Positions 5,696 to 20,709 of a stretch of DNA of 20,709 nt are shown piece after piece. The DNA lies in IMG/VR virus record IMGVR_UViG_2690316109_000015. The stretch is one strand, 5' to 3'. The number at the start of each line of letters is the position of its first letter. Position 1 is the first letter of the stretch. The notes beneath the pieces are model-generated. The model was not told where the DNA came from, searched no databases, and saw only the letters and a list, made by a program, of their open reading frames with translations. Source of the DNA: a virus. Its lineage: Duplodnaviria; Heunggongvirae; Uroviricota; Caudoviricetes. The position numbers and the translations under genes were made by a program.

Positions 5696-5898
<203 letters not shown>

Positions 5899-5912: not shown

Positions 5913-7196
5913 TTACTTCTTCGCCTCTGCAACCACTTTACTACCCACGCCGCGGTTATTGTATTCCCACATGCGGTTGTAGTTAGTGTCATTCAGATTG
6001 CGCTGTATTTCGTCGTTATCATCTACGCTGCCGGTATTACCCGCAAACGGACGATTAGAGATCACCGCATCGGCCCACGGTTTAGCCGTGTTAAAACCTT
6101 CGTTGATGGCGCTATCACGGATCACCACCTGACCGTTGGTATTGGCATCAACATCCAGCGAGCGGCCCAGTTGCGCCACGCCATCACCGGAAGCATTGAA
6201 ACGGCTGTTTACAGCGAGGAAACCGTAGTAAATGTTGGACAGCGTTGCCGGTGCAAACACATACGCTTCTTGCTGAGTACGTGAGTTCACCACGCGGAAT
6301 TCGGTGTTATCGAACACCACTGCGCCGCGACCAGAAACGATATCCACATCCCCTTCAATGTAGCTGTTGGTCACCAGCGTACGCGGCTGACGATTCGTTT
6401 CCAGACGGTTCTGCACACCGCTGTTGGTGACAAAGAAGGTGTTCTGACGACCGAGAATGTTCACGTTGTTAATCTGTACCTGGTCACCATCAGTACGCAG
6501 TGCCACCGCCGGATGGTTACCCGCATCTACGCTATCGCCCAGCGTGTTTTCGATGGTCAGGTTTTGCAGTTGCAGGCCATTGTTTTGTGACCAGAAGACC
6601 GCTGAACAGAGAACACCGATACTGTTGCTGCGTTTGCTCTGGCAGCTATCGTACATATACCACGCTGGTTTACCTGGCATATATTTGCCGCGCGGGTTGA
6701 CGTCGTGACGCCAGTCGGCAGGGCTCATGCCCCCATCAAGGGAAAGCCCAATCTTCACATCAATCGGTTTTTCACCTGTACCGTACAGAGTAATTCCACC
6801 CGGAGCGGCAGGAACATATACCGTTCCCTGATACTCACCTGGCATCACGGCAATATACTGGCGCTTGTTGGTACGCTTGATAATTGCCGCATCTACCGCC
6901 GCCTGAATCGTGGTATGCGTTACACCTTGAGTACCCGCCGGGCCGACAACAAAGTCAGGTTGCGCAGGCAGGGTAATCGGGGAAGGATTCCACGCTGCAG
7001 CACCTGGTGTCAGGGATGCAAAATAGTGTTGAGCATCGAAATTCTGCGCTTCTTTTGCCGACAGAATCGGGCGAGAAGAGGTACCAGGCGCGGTTTGATC
7101 AGAAGGACGTTGATCGGGTGGTGTTGAGCTACAGGCGGTCAGCGTCACGCCAAAAGCCAATGCCAGCGCCAGACGGGAAACTGAAAATGTGTTCAC
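5913..7196 (-). CDS. ybhC: Outer-membrane lipoprotein, pectinesterase-like / acyl-CoA thioesterase family (427 aa)
   Basis: GTG start with GGAG at 6 nt; signal peptide with lipobox LTAC|SS; gene immediately precedes the lambda attB position as in E. coli. Confidence 0.8.
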   Translation of the reverse strand: MNTFSVSRLALALAFGVTLTACSSTPPDQRPSDQTAPGTSSRPILSAKEAQNFDAQHYFASLTPGAAAWNPSPITLPAQPDFVVGPAGTQGVTHTTIQAAVDAAIIKRTNKRQYIAVMPGEYQGTVYVPAAPGGITLYGTGEKPIDVKIGLSLDGGMSPADWRHDVNPRGKYMPGKPAWYMYDSCQSKRSNSIGVLCSAVFWSQNNGLQLQNLTIENTLGDSVDAGNHPAVALRTDGDQVQINNVNILGRQNTFFVTNSGVQNRLETNRQPRTLVTNSYIEGDVDIVSGRGAVVFDNTEFRVVNSRTQQEAYVFAPATLSNIYYGFLAVNSRFNASGDGVAQLGRSLDVDANTNGQVVIRDSAINEGFNTAKPWADAVISNRPFAGNTGSVDDNDEIQRNLNDTNYNRMWEYNNRGVGSKVVAEAKK

Positions 7197-13362: not shown

Positions 13363-14169
13363 CTACTGTAACATAGAGGCAGCATTCAGCATCTTTTCGT
13401 AATATGAACGCATGTCTTCTTTGCTATATGCGTTGATAAGATTATCAGCGTGTTTTTCCAGTAGATTTAGCTGCTGTTTTGCTGACTTTTCTTGTGCTGT
13501 CGTTTCAGCGGCAAAAATTACAAATGAATCAATATTTGAATTGTATAATTCGTAGGCTTTAGTAATTGTTAAAACACTTATCGCAGCTTCACCCATTTGT
13601 TTTTTTATATTTTCAGAACGAAAATCTAATGTTTCTGTAAGATGGTATTTGCCATTTTTTAACAAAAAATCTGCAACTAACCCTTCTTCATTACTAATTG
13701 GATAATTAGCTACGATTTTATGTTGGGAAAGATCTTCAAAATACTTACTGAAAATTCCATGTTGTATAAAGGTGGATTTTAATTCAGAAAAAACCTTTTT
13801 TTTCAACTGTTTATGTGGCTGTTTTTGTGGGTTTACTAACCGATTCATTAGATCAGTAACTTTAGCTTCGTAATCTTCGTTGGCTTGAAGAGTGAACATG
13901 CCAAATGACGATAACGATAATGCTCCCTTAAAAAGACAAGGAAGAAGTTCAGCATTGTTGATTTTTTGTGACAAATCAAAAAGCGAGGTCGAAAGATCCT
14001 CTAAGTAATCTAAGGTAAGATCTTTGTCAATCGCTTTAAGTTTTGAAACTGAATTGAGCATACGTACGTCTATGTCAGAGTCATGGTAAACGATCAAACC
14101 AACGTTAATCGTTTCACCTTTCTCTAAGTTCGGTGTAACTCTGATTAAGCTGTATTTGAAAGTTTTCAA
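13363..14169 (-). CDS. Hypothetical protein (268 aa), second gene of the rex-position cargo operon; no recognisable catalytic motif
   Basis: TTG start whose first two bases overlap the upstream TGA stop (TCTTGAAAA), GGAG 8 nt upstream; AT-rich; N-terminus MKTFKYSLIRVTPNLEKGETINVGLIVYHDSD; C-terminal third predicted helical. Confidence 0.7.
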   Translation of the reverse strand: MKTFKYSLIRVTPNLEKGETINVGLIVYHDSDIDVRMLNSVSKLKAIDKDLTLDYLEDLSTSLFDLSQKINNAELLPCLFKGALSLSSFGMFTLQANEDYEAKVTDLMNRLVNPQKQPHKQLKKKVFSELKSTFIQHGIFSKYFEDLSQHKIVANYPISNEEGLVADFLLKNGKYHLTETLDFRSENIKKQMGEAAISVLTITKAYELYNSNIDSFVIFAAETTAQEKSAKQQLNLLEKHADNLINAYSKEDMRSYYEKMLNAASMLQ

Positions 14170-15014
14170 GATGTTATCTCCAGTCTTATGGCATTTAGCC
14201 TATCGATTCGCTCCTCGCTGTCCCACCACTTCAAAAAATACTCCTTATGCATTGGTGGCATCCATGCTTCAGGCATAGAGTTAAGTATATCAGATATAGC
14301 CTCAACTCCAATTTTTTCAATTTTGTCAAGGACAGATAATGCGCACTTTCTCAGATCATCAGTGTCGCCAATGAATTGTTTAGCAATCGTCCAGTTTGTT
14401 GTTGTACTGGAGTCTGTTGGTAGTATATGAGGGGTATTTCGTGGCCAGCCTATAACAAAAGAGCTTAGACTAAAATCGAATGTTTTAACTATAACATTGC
14501 CTCGGGTGTTTTCCATGTATAAGTAGTTGTTGAGGTGTCTGTCAATGTTATATACAAACTGATCAAATGCATAAATTGCCCAGAGTTGCTTCTTTAAGGA
14601 TTCAGAAGCATTTGAGAGCAAATTTATCCATTGAGGACTATTGAGACCAGATTTCCAGGCTGAAAACTCTATGCGAGAGCCAAAAACATACTCCCCATTA
14701 GCAATACACTTGAGAATTTTGCACACAGGTGTAGCGATGCCGCATTTTTCAGCTAAATTTGTGCAAAACCATTCCGCTGCCGGTACTTGAGTTGGGTTTT
14801 GTACAGGAAAAGGTGGGGTGGAGCGCATGCTTTTAACTGCATATTCCATTTCATCAGTGGCAATAGCGAAACCAGAAAGGTGTGCTGTGCCTAAGCTTGA
14901 AGGTGTATATTCATGAAATTCTAATTCAAACAAACTTCCTTGCTCTGGTTTCACTTCATCAGTGTTTGACTCTTGTTCTTTCGTCATCAACTTTTTTCCC
15001 CAAATCGAAGACAT
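14166..15014 (-). CDS. Kinase-like protein (282 aa) with HipA/PI3K-type catalytic-loop signature; first gene of the rex-position cargo operon
   Basis: ATG at 15014 with AGAGG at 5-nt spacing, 46 nt downstream of the cI-like stop; motif NIDRHLNN (D-R-H-x-x-N) followed about 20 residues later by KTFDFS (DFG-like); AT-rich. Confidence 0.7.
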   Translation of the reverse strand: MSSIWGKKLMTKEQESNTDEVKPEQGSLFELEFHEYTPSSLGTAHLSGFAIATDEMEYAVKSMRSTPPFPVQNPTQVPAAEWFCTNLAEKCGIATPVCKILKCIANGEYVFGSRIEFSAWKSGLNSPQWINLLSNASESLKKQLWAIYAFDQFVYNIDRHLNNYLYMENTRGNVIVKTFDFSLSSFVIGWPRNTPHILPTDSSTTTNWTIAKQFIGDTDDLRKCALSVLDKIEKIGVEAISDILNSMPEAWMPPMHKEYFLKWWDSEERIDRLNAIRLEITS

Positions 15015-16115: not shown

Positions 16116-16661
16116 ATGACTATGCAACCACTTACATACCAACAGACTAGCGGATTTATCCCGACTGCGGTGATAAATCGTTCTCAAATAAAACAGGTGC
16201 CAGGCCACGAAAAAATCCGTGATGCCATCCGCGCCTGGTCGGCTGTAGATAATCAGGATGTCGTTGCCGCACTCATTGTGAATGAGTATCGAGCACAGGG
16301 CGGCGGCACTATCGATTTTTCTGATGATGTCAGTCGTGCACGCCAGAAGCTGTTCCGCTTTCTCGATAACAAATTCGATTCTGAAAAATACCGAAATAAC
16401 GTGCGTGAACTGACTCCAGCAATTCTGGCAGTACTACCGCTGAAATATCGCGGCCACCTGGTTGAGCAGGATAGCTTCATGGCTCGGCTGGCTGAAATGG
16501 AAAAGGAACTCAGTGAGGCAAAACAGGCTGTCATTCTCAACGCACCACGCCACCAGAAACTGAAGGAGATGAGTGAAGGCATTGTGTCGATGTTTCGTGT
16601 GGACCCGGATTTGGCTGGTCCACTGATGGCGATGGTCACCACCATGCTGGGGGCAATATGA
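16116..16661 (+). CDS. CII-position regulator, YdaT-like (181 aa)
   Basis: Occupies the cII position between cro-like and O; segments EYRAQGGG and LTPAILAVLP resemble what I recall of Rac-prophage YdaT. Confidence 0.5.
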   Translation: MTMQPLTYQQTSGFIPTAVINRSQIKQVPGHEKIRDAIRAWSAVDNQDVVAALIVNEYRAQGGGTIDFSDDVSRARQKLFRFLDNKFDSEKYRNNVRELTPAILAVLPLKYRGHLVEQDSFMARLAEMEKELSEAKQAVILNAPRHQKLKEMSEGIVSMFRVDPDLAGPLMAMVTTMLGAI

Positions 16662-17677: not shown

Positions 17678-18375
17678 AAAACATCGCCGCACAGATGATT
17701 AACTTTGACCGTGAGCAGATGCGTCGGATCGCCAACAACATGCCGGAACAGTACGACGAAAAGCCGCAGGTACAGCAGGTAGCGCAGATCATCAACGGTG
17801 TATTCAGCCAGTTGCTGGCAACTTTCCCTGCGAGCCTGGCTAACCGTGACCAGAACGAACTGAACGAAATCCGCCGCCAGTGGGTTCTGGCTTTCCGGGA
17901 AAACGGGATCACCACAATGGAACAGGTTAACGCAGGAATGCGCGTAGCCCGTCGGCAGAATCGACCATTTCTGCCATCACCTGGGCAGTTTGTTGCATGG
18001 TGCCGGGAAGAAGCATCCGTTATCGCCGGACTGCCAAACGTCAGCGAGCTGGTTGATATGGTTTACGAGTATTGCCGGAAGCGCGGGCTGTATCCGGATG
18101 CAGAGTCTTATCCGTGGAAATCAAACGCGCACTACTGGCTGGTTACCAACCTGTATCAGAACATGCGGGCCAATGCGTTGACTGACGCGGAATTACGGCG
18201 CAAGGCTGCCGATGAACTGTCCTGTATGACCGCACGAATTAACCGTGGTGAGGCTATACCTGAACCAGTAAAACAACTTCCTGTCATGGGCGGTAGACCA
18301 CTTAACCGGGCTCAGGCTCTGGCGAAGATCGCAGAAATCAAAGCTAAGTTCGGACTGAAAGGAGCCAGTGTATGA
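17674..18375 (+). CDS. P: Replication protein P (DnaB helicase loader), lambda P (233 aa)
   Basis: 233 aa MKNIAAQMINFDREQMRRIANNMPEQYDEKPQVQQVAQIINGVFSQLLATFPASLANRDQNE...; recognised as lambda P; ATGA overlap with the O stop. Confidence 0.95.
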   Translation: MKNIAAQMINFDREQMRRIANNMPEQYDEKPQVQQVAQIINGVFSQLLATFPASLANRDQNELNEIRRQWVLAFRENGITTMEQVNAGMRVARRQNRPFLPSPGQFVAWCREEASVIAGLPNVSELVDMVYEYCRKRGLYPDAESYPWKSNAHYWLVTNLYQNMRANALTDAELRRKAADELSCMTARINRGEAIPEPVKQLPVMGGRPLNRAQALAKIAEIKAKFGLKGASV

Positions 18376-18665
18376 CAGGCAAAGAGGCAATTCTTCACTA
18401 CCTGAAAACGCACCGGACTTTCTGCGCGCCGGATGTAGCTGCGGCAACAGGCGTGACTGTAACCAGCATCAATCAGGCAGCAGCCAAAATGGCACGGGCA
18501 GGAATCCTGGTCGTTGATGGCAAGGTCTGGCGAACGGTGTATTACCGGTTCGCTACCAGGGAGGAGCGGGAAGGAAAAGTGAGCACGAACCTGATTTTCA
18601 AGGAGTGTCGCCAGAGTGCCGTGATGAAACGGGTATTGATGTTTTGGGGGAGGGTAGGGGTATAA
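18372..18665 (+). CDS. ren: Ren-like protein (97 aa)
   Basis: MTGKEAILHYLKTHRTFCAPDVAAATGVTVTSINQAAAKMARAGILVVDGKVWRTVYYRFATREEREGK...; close to lambda Ren as I recall it; ATGA overlap with the P stop. Confidence 0.85.
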   Translation: MTGKEAILHYLKTHRTFCAPDVAAATGVTVTSINQAAAKMARAGILVVDGKVWRTVYYRFATREEREGKVSTNLIFKECRQSAVMKRVLMFWGRVGV

Positions 18666-18953
18666 GCGAAACGTTATGAGTGTGTGGGTATTCGTGCCAT
18701 TGCGATGTGGTAGAGAGTGCTGAGGGCGTCATGGTTGTGTTGCGAAGACTACGTTGCACTTGAGCAGGATCTTGCAGAATTTGAGCGCGAGTTCCGTGTT
18801 GCTGATGCGACTATACCCTCGATGTAGAGGAACTTAATTAGCTGATTGTAATTCAATATGCCTACTAAGGCCGGTTGGGTATGAACTAGTAAAGGCTGCA
18901 AAATCCTATAGAGTGTTAACGCAACCAAAAACGTTAAGCACGGAGAAAAAAAC

Positions 18954-19706
18954 ATGGATCCTAAATTACTGTATGCCACGTTTAAACGAAATGACGCACC
19001 AGCTTGGCGCTGCCCGAACTGTATGAATGAAACACTGGAGATTGTCGCTGATAGTTTTGTAGAAACTGATTCAAGCGCAACAACTCAGTTTAGAGATGAA
19101 GTATGGTTTGATGAGGAAATGTCGGGAGGAGTATTCAGTTGCGTGCTGCGCTGTACCCGCCAAGCCTGCCAGGAGAAGGTTGCTTTGTCTGGGCAGGTTG
19201 TTGCTGTAGAATGCTTCAATGACGAAATGACGGAGCGTTGGTATGTTTCTGGTTTCCGTCCTAAGTATTTCTATCCACCACTTCCTCTATTCCTGTTTCC
19301 TGAAAAGTGCCCTGAAGATATAGCTGATCTCTTGGCGGAAGTATCAGCTCTGATCCCCTCGCACCCAGCTTCAGCGGTGAACACCATGAGAACCATACTG
19401 GAGATGATGCTTGATAGTCTTGATGTACCAAGAGAGAAAACAGTTAAAGGCAAGATAATACGTCTTTCTACGCATGAAAGAATCACATATTATTCAGATA
19501 AACTGGGACCAAATAAAGATGCATTCATGGCGTTAAAGTGGTTGGGGAATCACGGCAGTCATGGAGGGATTAAAGTCACAAGGTCCTCTATTAATGATGC
19601 CTGCATTCTCATTGGTCATTTGATTGACTTCTTATTCTTAGAAAGCCCGGATGTAACTATTCATATTGAACGGATAAACAACGTGTATGCACCCAAAAAG
19701 GAGTAA
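18954..19706 (+). CDS. Hypothetical protein (250 aa): N-terminal Cys4 zinc-ribbon-like region plus C-terminal HEPN/DUF4145-like segment with non-canonical motif
   Basis: GGAG at 8-nt spacing; Cys pairs WRCPNC ... CVLRCTRQAC; C-terminal LKWLGNHGSHGG aligns with the RNNLFHG motif of the downstream 160-aa protein but lacks the Arg; lower GC than flanks by eye. Confidence 0.65.
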   Translation: MDPKLLYATFKRNDAPAWRCPNCMNETLEIVADSFVETDSSATTQFRDEVWFDEEMSGGVFSCVLRCTRQACQEKVALSGQVVAVECFNDEMTERWYVSGFRPKYFYPPLPLFLFPEKCPEDIADLLAEVSALIPSHPASAVNTMRTILEMMLDSLDVPREKTVKGKIIRLSTHERITYYSDKLGPNKDAFMALKWLGNHGSHGGIKVTRSSINDACILIGHLIDFLFLESPDVTIHIERINNVYAPKKE

Positions 19707-19717
19707 AACGTAACGCC

Positions 19718-19966
19718 ATGTCGAAGCAGAATATTGCCGCTAAAACACAAGAAGAGCGCGAGAAGGTTAACGTTGACCTTGCTGTCTCCTGAGTTACCTA
19801 CAAAGAGCGCCTTAATATACCGGTTATTGCCGAAGCGGTGATGCGTGAGCAGCCTGAGCATTTGCGGGACTATTTTTTGGAGCGGCCACGACATTACCGC
19901 GAGCAGAGCATCGCGCTGCCCAAGGCATCCACTCCTCGACATCTTAAGCAGGAAGGTGAAAAATGA
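19718..19966 (+). other. Small reading frame (82 codons) interrupted by one in-frame TGA (19790-19792), ending in an ATGA overlap with the next gene
   Basis: MSKQNIAAKTQEEREKVNVDLAVS[61 protein letters not shown]; its TGA stop (19964-19966) overlaps the ATG (19963-19965) of the 160-aa gene; no good SD at 19718; internal ATG at 19841. Confidence 0.3.
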
Positions 19967-20445
19967 TAAGTGCAGAAGGACTGCAGCGGTTACTTAATTT
20001 ATCGGAGCCTCCATCTGATGAACTGATTGATGTTTATCTTCAATTCTGCATGATTTTTCCTAGGGTCGAGCAAAGTTTTTTTGGTGGCTTTGCTAAGGGG
20101 GAAGACAGTTTAAATTATGCGCGAACGTTACTTGACGCCGGGATAAAGGTGCCCAACGAACTTTTTCACGATTTTAAGCAGAGATACATTTTGAACGGGG
20201 ATGCGCAGGAAAGACTTGACGCCCTCTGTGTCGGTCGAGAGAGAGATAGGCGGGGAATAGTTAATGGACTTCAAAATGACGCAGCAACAGATCTAAACAC
20301 CATGTCTACAGTATTAAAGATAGTTATAAGGATAAGAAATAACCTTTTCCACGGAAATAAAGAAGCTTATCTTTTTGTTGATTCTCAAGAGCAAGCGCAA
20401 CTATTGAGGTGGTGCGTGAGATTTCTCCAAGGATTATTAAATTAA
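19963..20445 (+). CDS. HEPN-like protein (160 aa) with canonical R-x4-H motif (putative RNase-type toxin/abortive-infection effector)
   Basis: Motif [11 protein letters not shown] (R-N-N-L-F-H = Rx4H) near the C-terminus in a predicted helical context; non-lambda cargo replacing nin-region genes. Confidence 0.6.
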
Positions 20446-20709
20446 TCTACCTTTGATTTTCCATAATCAACCAGCAATAATAATGTCACCGGAGCCTGAA
20501 CAACATCGGTGACTTCTGCGCTAAACGGGGACGTTTATGCGCACATACAATCTAAACTCTCTTTTGCTGTCACAGATGCAGAAATGCACCTGCGATTTTT
20601 TGCATCCAGCGTTTGACCTCTGCGTAACCGGCTCATTTAAACCGTCTGGTCTGTTTCCTCCGGCTCTACAAAAATAATGTCCATCATTTTTAATGGACAC
20701 TATCGTATG

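Follow-up and report, generated by a model that had tools for sequence, protein, structure and literature searches.

Two single-gene HEPN-type defence candidates flank a decayed theta gene in the ren–nin gap of a lambdoid prophage

We analysed the cargo segment of a lambdoid prophage on a 20,709-nucleotide stretch of viral DNA (IMG/VR record IMGVR_UViG_2690316109_000015; the window), in which the gap between the ren-like gene and the position of the nin genes appears to hold three unrelated items and no single module. Two of these are the open reading frames (ORFs) ORF-A, of 250 amino acids (aa), and ORF-B, of 160 aa; the third, situated between them, is a broken theta gene. ORF-A is, by its domains, a stand-alone zinc-ribbon and DUF4145/HEPN protein and distant kin of the abortive-infection RNase RAZR (ring-activated zinc-finger RNase). 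We favour an account of two independent single-gene defence candidates and a decayed theta gene, to which we assign a probability of roughly 0.6. As a candidate of the HEPN type, ORF-A is firmly placed and ORF-B plausibly so.

The features of ORF-A are these:

18954–19706, plus strand: ORF-A, 250 aa, matching PF13643 and phrog_1305 (E 1.7e-44)
19011–19169, plus strand: zinc-ribbon knuckles of ORF-A, C20-P-x-C23 ... C67-x4-C72, with cysteines invariant in two alignments
19347–19601, plus strand: DUF4145 domain of ORF-A, residues 132–216 (Pfam envelope, profile positions 5–83 of 88)
19536–19562, plus strand: putative catalytic motif of ORF-A, K195-W-L-G-N-H-G-S-H203, with Lys where the RAZR type has Arg

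ORF-A begins with a Cys4 zinc ribbon and ends with a DUF4145 domain, the two being joined by a conserved linker rich in Pro. A preliminary description of this DNA had noted a 250-aa protein with a Cys4 zinc-ribbon N-terminus and the C-terminal motif LKWLGNHGSHGG (residues 194–205), and both parts were found where it had placed them. The profile search for HEPN and DUF4145 that it had proposed yields PF13643 with E 2e-11 and 44.2 bits, above the cutoff of 23.1, and the domain is present in all 16 homologues that span this region. DUF4145 belongs to the HEPN clan (CL0291); its fusions with zinc ribbons have been listed before, and the catalytic Arg...His pair is found in ∼80% of the family (Anantharaman et al. 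2013, PMC3710099).

Residues C20, C23, C67, C72, R146, E150 and the stretch G198-N199-x-G201-S202-H203 are invariant across ORF-A homologues. The same holds for K195, G198, N199, S202 and H203 in an alignment of 14 of them, and the His of the DUF4145 Arg...His pair corresponds to the invariant H203. In L083, the homologue most remote from ORF-A (28% identity), the K195 column has Arg (AIRWLGNHGSH). Since K-x7-H is conserved in the subfamily and R-x7-H occurs in a relative, the motif shows no sign of decay; judged from these alignments, it is a subfamily-wide Lys-for-Arg variant (K195-x7-H203) and no inactivated copy. The earlier reading, in which a 'degenerate' HEPN motif marked an inactive protein, is not supported in view of an invariant K195 and the Arg in L083.

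RAZR, formerly PD-T7-4, was discovered by Vassallo et al. 2022 (PMC9519451) and is the subject of a recent study (Nature 2026, PMC13017515). It joins an N-terminal Cys4 zinc ribbon to a C-terminal DUF4145 HEPN RNase with catalytic residues R146 and H154, and it is switched on by ring-shaped phage proteins such as portals, whereupon RNA cleavage leads to abortive infection (PMC13017515). Sequence searches of the PDB with ORF-A and with its family profile returned nothing relevant, and the RAZR entries 9Y9C and 9Y6U were absent from the matches.

A link between the two proteins is provided by gp49 of the P2-like phage SEN8, which is 33% identical to ORF-A and matches the PADLOC profile of PD-T7-4 with E 4.3e-5 over profile positions 54–197 of 211, corresponding to the linker and the HEPN region. 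The gp49 gene is located between gpA/dinI and the genome end, in the P2 gpA-to-portal gap, a known defence hotspot (Vassallo et al., PMC9519451). A homologue with 70% identity to ORF-A in a P2-like prophage (L081, 5004–6831) adjoins a complete Septu system (PtuA, E 3e-148; PtuB, E 1.5e-92), and full-length homologues stand alone on 116 plasmids. Among sequenced phages, the family is seen in SEN8 alone and in no lambdoid phage genome. The SEN8 hotspot, the Septu neighbour and the plasmid context support a defence role of ORF-A. By analogy with RAZR, we infer that the zinc ribbon would detect an infecting phage through one of its proteins, whose binding would switch on the HEPN domains of an ORF-A oligomer; the activated enzyme would cut cellular RNA and stop translation.

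The second candidate, ORF-B, is an all-alpha protein with a short, highly conserved motif:

19963–20445, plus strand: ORF-B, 160 aa, all-alpha (phrog_27260, E 5e-93)
20329–20361, plus strand: ORF-B motif, R123-I-R125-N-N-L-F-H130-G-N-K133 (conservation in 149 sequences)

The 160-aa protein with an R-x4-H motif (quoted earlier as what are residues 122–131) is also confirmed. R123, R125, N127, H130 and K133 are invariant in 149 relatives, and E36, R74, Y75, N126 and G131 are nearly so (N126 in at least 90%), so that the RNxxxH of the HEPN type is strictly conserved. With key residues invariant in 14 and 149 relatives, respectively, the motifs of ORF-A and ORF-B are not products of chance. Also, the ratio of non-synonymous to synonymous substitution rates (dN/dS) against the Klebsiella and Salmonella orthologues is 0.10–0.15, a value that marks ORF-B as a genuine gene maintained by purifying selection.

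In HEPN domains, Rx4-6H is found where helix 3 ends or the next loop starts, and a conserved acid is present in an N-terminal helix. An AlphaFold2 model of ORF-B on a 71-sequence alignment has nine helices, a mean predicted local distance difference test score (pLDDT) of 94.6 and a predicted template modelling score (pTM) of 0.91; an earlier run with nine close homologues (pLDDT 45.8) was discarded. The motif is situated at the C-terminal end of helix 110–130, which ends with H130, and is followed by a turn (131–132) and helices 133–138 and 141–159, while the conserved E36 lies within helix 19–39 near the N-terminus. Both the position of the motif and the acid are therefore as in HEPN domains, and R125-N-N-L-F-H130 has the spacing of Rx4-6H with a polar residue after the Arg. 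Among the 71 relatives, Pfam gives six weak matches to HEPN families (two to HEPN_RiboL-PSP, two to DUF3644 and one each to DUF4209 and SWT1_3rd), and PADLOC gives three further weak matches for ORF-B relatives, to CARF_HEPN and Csx1/Csm6. From the motif, its position in the model and the weak profile matches, ORF-B is probably a member of the HEPN superfamily.

Eight close clusters of ORF-B were detected by a word-index search, and a full HMMER scan of 1.84 billion representatives identified 174 relatives, nearly all of 155–180 aa. A profile search extended the family to 966 clusters, every one annotated as 'hypothetical', with members in Ensifer, Loktanella, Cupriavidus and Bradyrhizobium as well as Enterobacteriaceae; the only named family that includes ORF-B is phrog_27260, function unassigned. 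In Table S10 of the DefensePredictor study, the cluster of WP_000622057.1, the copy of ORF-B in E. coli IAI1, is listed as a 'predicted novel defense gene' with mean log-odds of 12.9 (cutoff 4). This listing is a prediction, and we found no sign of experimental follow-up of the cluster. The best HHblits match of WP_000622057.1 is PD-T4-2_B (RiboL-PSP-HEPN), with a probability of 59.5 over 29% of the protein. Elsewhere, ORF-B relatives occur in conflict-type neighbourhoods: with ImmA/HTH and Prok-E2/ThiF/JAB genes, with AAA_21 and T5orf172, with a ResIII helicase, or with a resolvase and a kinase. On balance, we lean towards a defence role for ORF-B. It is a stand-alone helical protein whose motif closes a long helix, as the Rx4-6H site does in HEPN RNases, and it would most likely act as a homodimeric HEPN-like RNase in phage exclusion, to judge from the motif, the gene context and the published machine-learning prediction.

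Five Bradyrhizobium loci (L061–L065, 3740–4582) have a 193-aa member of the ORF-B family preceded by a 72-aa HTH_73 protein, at a chromosomal site between UDG and thiC. This toxin–antitoxin-like layout is unseen in enterobacterial loci.

The preliminary description had aligned the two motifs, taken the domains to be related and proposed a toxin or defence module that might pair an inactive HEPN paralogue with an active one. Comparison of the two family profiles with hhalign gives a probability of 0.2%, and no relationship between the two proteins is detectable. In Klebsiella and Salmonella prophages, there is no ORF-A near the ORF-B orthologues (76–78% identity); conversely, P2-like prophages and the 116 plasmids carry ORF-A homologues without an ORF-B. 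Because of the negligible profile similarity and the separate occurrence of each gene, ORF-A and ORF-B are best described, on comparative grounds, as independent cargo genes that are neighbours by chance in this prophage lineage.

We consider a heterodimeric toxin or defence module of inactive ORF-A and active ORF-B highly improbable. It could draw on the adjacency of the two genes on the same strand, here and in 47 of 5426 complete E. coli genomes, and on the N-x3-H-G strings in both proteins. The mosaic locus L039 even repeats the order with ORF-A (94% identity), an intact theta allele (67%) and an ORF-B-family allele (30%); L079 is noted alongside. However, the theta gene separates ORF-A from ORF-B, the conserved K-x7-H motif of ORF-A (R-x7-H in a relative) is no decayed site, and neither the profile comparison nor the distribution of the genes supports a pair. 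L039 looks like a product of mosaic exchange within the ren–nin gap. Among the ORFs of the window there is neither an antitoxin-like partner nor an MNT gene, and hence no sign of a type II toxin–antitoxin system: the only recurrent neighbour of ORF-B, theta, is often broken, and ORF-A homologues stand alone. Of the toxin or defence module suggested before, defence remains the best reading for both genes, whereas the single module, for which an antitoxin-like partner is also missing, has to be given up.

The item between the two candidates is the theta gene:

19718–19966, plus strand: broken gene of the DNA polymerase III theta / P1 Hot-like kind (NF008207, phrog_1105; 'internal stop' in RefSeq)
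19790–19792, plus strand: in-frame TGA at codon 25 of the theta gene (Gly in intact homologues)

The 'short coupled frame' noted previously between ORF-A and ORF-B does exist (GTG start, 19838–19966, 42 aa) and overlaps the ORF-B start by 4 bp as ATGA, but it is not a separate gene: it is the 3' part of the broken theta gene. Read from the ATG at 19718, the theta frame ends in ...EGEK. When the TGA is read as Gly, NF008207 scores 95.4 bits (cutoff 97) and phrog_1105 matches with E 6e-32. With the TGA at codon 25, the intact frame of about 76–84 aa that is typical of theta is not present here, and in its relatives RefSeq treats the gene as a pseudogene that contains an internal stop. The TGA is common to all close E. 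coli relatives read (L001, L002 and L008–L014). Selenocysteine incorporation or programmed read-through at the TGA was considered and rejected, since homologues have Gly at this position and other lineages break theta elsewhere. Beside ORF-B-family genes, theta is broken in ∼10 lambdoid lineages by stops, frameshifts or deletions at differing positions (L015–L017, L019, L043, L045, L046, L055, L058 and L060). By comparison with intact homologues, the middle item is a decayed copy of a phage theta/Hot gene.

In lambdoid prophages, it is theta and not ORF-A that recurs next to ORF-B. The order theta, ORF-B-family gene, ybcN/ninB is found in 16 lambdoid lineages, in which identity to ORF-B ranges from 100% down to 24% and that of theta from 53 to 81%. 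Theta directly 5' of an ORF-B-family gene in so many lineages, and an ATGA overlap that is shared by the Klebsiella and Salmonella orthologues, might point to a two-gene unit of ORF-B and theta/Hot, with theta serving as antitoxin, adaptor or sensor towards the epsilon subunit of the replisome. Nevertheless, we regard such a unit as rather unlikely. Theta is broken in ∼10 of these lineages, this one included, next to a mostly intact ORF-B; in the phages HK639, RothD, ST846-OXA48phi9.2 and P1, theta is followed by other small genes and ORF-B is missing; and outside Enterobacteria the ORF-B family has quite different neighbours. Also, a tblastn search with ORF-B found none among 50,697 phage records, with hits limited to four rhizobial plasmids. 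The overlap carries little weight, since nin-region genes usually have overlapping stop and start codons. Host HolE could cover for a lost phage theta. Still, with theta often a pseudogene beside an intact ORF-B, its function as an antitoxin ranks low. Improbable to us, too, is a functional unit in which a replisome-subunit mimic would control or target a new family of HEPN-like effectors; ORF-B might, for instance, be kept inactive by theta or host HolE as long as no replicating phage disturbs the epsilon–theta complex.

The remaining features of the segment are the following:

18372–18665, plus strand: ren-like gene, 97 aa (phrog_142, 'Ren-like exclusion protein', E 1.3e-41)
18666–18953, plus strand: spacer of 288 bp between ren and ORF-A, G+C fraction (GC) ∼0.44 in the composition profile; RefSeq relatives annotate no gene here
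20449–20624, plus strand: conserved lambdoid pre-nin segment, 82–91% identity to phages 82, HK639, CobraSix and others
20614–20709, plus strand: end of an IS66-family element, 95–98% identity to DNA adjoining IS66 tnpA in many E. coli genomes

At the start of the window are host genes (a LysR regulator, PrpF, a symporter, an aconitase-family protein and a pectinesterase-like protein), and since a lambda-type integrase follows them, the prophage is located at att-lambda. Beyond the integrase are a CI-like repressor, a Cro-like gene, a YdaT-domain gene, O (PF04492, E 2e-35), P (PF06992, E 1e-61) and the ren-like gene, the last conserved replication-region gene 5' of the cargo. The low GC of the cargo segment (0.42–0.46, compared with ∼0.54 in O, P and ren) marks it as foreign. 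When the cargo was searched against the 50,697 phage records, the match was confined to the last ∼176 bases (20449–20624); the cargo directly 3' of ren was therefore correctly described as non-lambda from the outset. The pre-nin segment contains a terminator-like hairpin at 20577–20594, followed by a T-run, and in relatives ybcN/ninB come after it. The 47 E. coli genomes mentioned above, IAI1 among them, carry the 1959-bp cargo segment with 99.5–99.9% identity, followed by ybcN, ninE, ybcO, rusA and quuD. In the window, the IS66-family element cuts the prophage just 5' of the ybcN position, and the match to related prophages ends at 20624. Rfam and repeat scans of the cargo region revealed no RNA element and no meaningful repeat.

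Elsewhere in the prophage, a HipA-like kinase (14166–15014, minus strand, PF20613) overlaps a DUF3037 protein (13363–14169, minus strand) just beyond the CI-like repressor, which is the rexAB position of lambda. The pair resembles the validated defence system DS-6/HipAD, a HipA-family kinase with a DUF3037/DUF1829 protein. In IAI1, this slot is occupied by DUF4411 and ImmA/IrrE genes instead. For the gene at the cII position (16116–16661), RefSeq annotates a YdaT toxin domain in identical relatives. In the host DNA, a match to the nucleoid-associated noncoding RNA 4 (naRNA4; 5774–5844), barely over the Rfam gathering score, lies between the aconitase-family and the pectinesterase-like gene.

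Several points weigh against the account of two defence candidates. The cargo is situated inside the early lytic pR operon, 5' of a conserved terminator-like segment, and the consensus scan revealed no convincing promoter of its own, which leaves expression in the lysogen in doubt. One or both genes might thus serve the lytic cycle of the phage, in host takeover, anti-defence or nucleic-acid processing from pR, and not the protection of the lysogen. The location between ren and the pre-nin segment and the 288-bp spacer, in which the same scan found no strong promoter-like site, would fit this view, as would the PHROGs label of the ORF-A family (phrog_1305, 'DNA binding protein'). That name, however, has no experimental basis, and the low GC indicates foreign cargo. 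Neither gene is found in sequenced lambdoid phages; ORF-B is absent from the phage records and ORF-A appears only in the SEN8 defence hotspot. Moreover, members of both families are frequent on plasmids or on chromosomal islands that have nothing to do with the lytic development of lambdoid phages, and we judge a lytic role to be unlikely.

Further points of this kind concern the proteins themselves. The roles of ORF-A and ORF-B are proposed from sequence, a structural model, gene context and a published prediction. ORF-A and all its close homologues have Lys195 in place of the Arg of the DUF4145 Arg...His pair, and the PADLOC profile of PD-T7-4 gives no match to ORF-A even at E ≤ 10. Since this profile catches SEN8 gp49 and not ORF-A, we place ORF-A as a distant RAZR relative in a subfamily of its own. 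ORF-B has no Pfam, NCBIfam or PADLOC match, a Foldseek search with its model against PDB and BFVD found nothing, and Pfam detected no HEPN domain in a second sample, comprising 148 family members. The gene is also not universally maintained, as it is broken in L013 and L014 (the same nonsense codon, K45 to stop; 6001–6480), L017 (frameshift) and L045 (internal stop).

The preliminary description had named profile and structure searches as a check on the HEPN reading; for ORF-B these yield weak matches in relatives, but none for the protein itself and no convincing structural neighbour. PDB sequence searches with ORF-B and its family profile returned nothing relevant. A confident model without a significant structural neighbour, together with the lack of profile-level HEPN matches for ORF-B and the 148 further members, could mean that ORF-B is no nuclease and has a novel helical fold with a function unrelated to HEPN, its Arg/Asn/His/Lys cluster being the site at which a ligand or partner binds. 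We hold this to be a lesser possibility. RNxxxHG is a typical HEPN signature and is found at the canonical helix-end position, and the scattered weak matches recur on HEPN families in three independent resources.

ORF-A is a variant of the RAZR kind with a subfamily of its own, and ORF-B belongs to an uncharacterised family that has already been flagged computationally. If ORF-A is active, RAZR-like zinc-ribbon HEPN sensors would work with Lys instead of the canonical Arg, and there would be a second widespread RAZR-like subfamily, in prophages and on 116 plasmids, whose sensor domain differs and whose phage triggers probably differ as well. Through ORF-B, a large family without a name comes into view (966 clusters from alpha-, beta- and gamma-proteobacteria), with an invariant, catalytic-looking motif and a confidently predicted fold that lacks a structural relative, ranked high as a defence gene by a published predictor. 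Were theta and ORF-B a unit after all, ORF-B would act in defence as an effector that senses the condition of the replisome. With no support for a pair, ORF-A and ORF-B should be treated separately in experiments. The ren–nin gap and the HipA-like kinase/DUF3037 pair at the rex position together suggest that the prophage may hold several sites for defence cargo.

Among known systems, the middle gene is closest to P1 Hot (68% identity over 82 residues); unlike Hot and E. coli HolE, it is stopped at codon 25 and would give rise to fragments at most. ORF-B shares with RiboL-PSP-HEPN proteins (PD-T4-2_B) and small stand-alone HEPN effectors the RNxxxHG at a helix end, a conserved N-terminal Glu, small size, all-alpha structure and occurrence in mobile-element or defence-island contexts. 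It differs in that the likeness is marginal (in Pfam, E 1e-4 for just two of the 71 relatives), in the additional invariant residues R123 and K133, and in a nine-helix fold that has no convincing structural match.

ORF-A resembles DS-38, a validated E. coli single-gene system of zinc finger and HEPN domain from the DefensePredictor study, according to which DS-38 aligns with PD-T7-4 in the HEPN domain only. Identity of the two was considered and rejected: DS-38 is WP_001313577.1, encoded by 1101 nt, and with 366 aa it is set apart from the 250-aa ORF-A by size and accession. No ORF-A accession appears in the rows read from the DefensePredictor tables, an absence that means little. Compared with RAZR, ORF-A is longer (250 aa versus the 211 positions of the PD-T7-4 model), its zinc knuckles are 43 residues apart within a longer zinc-ribbon domain, and it has Lys where RAZR has Arg at the catalytic position. 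Nevertheless, both are single proteins in which a conserved linker connects a Cys4 zinc ribbon to a C-terminal DUF4145 domain, both are carried on mobile elements, and the basic residue and the His are spaced by eight positions in each (K195 and H203 in ORF-A, R146 and H154 in RAZR).

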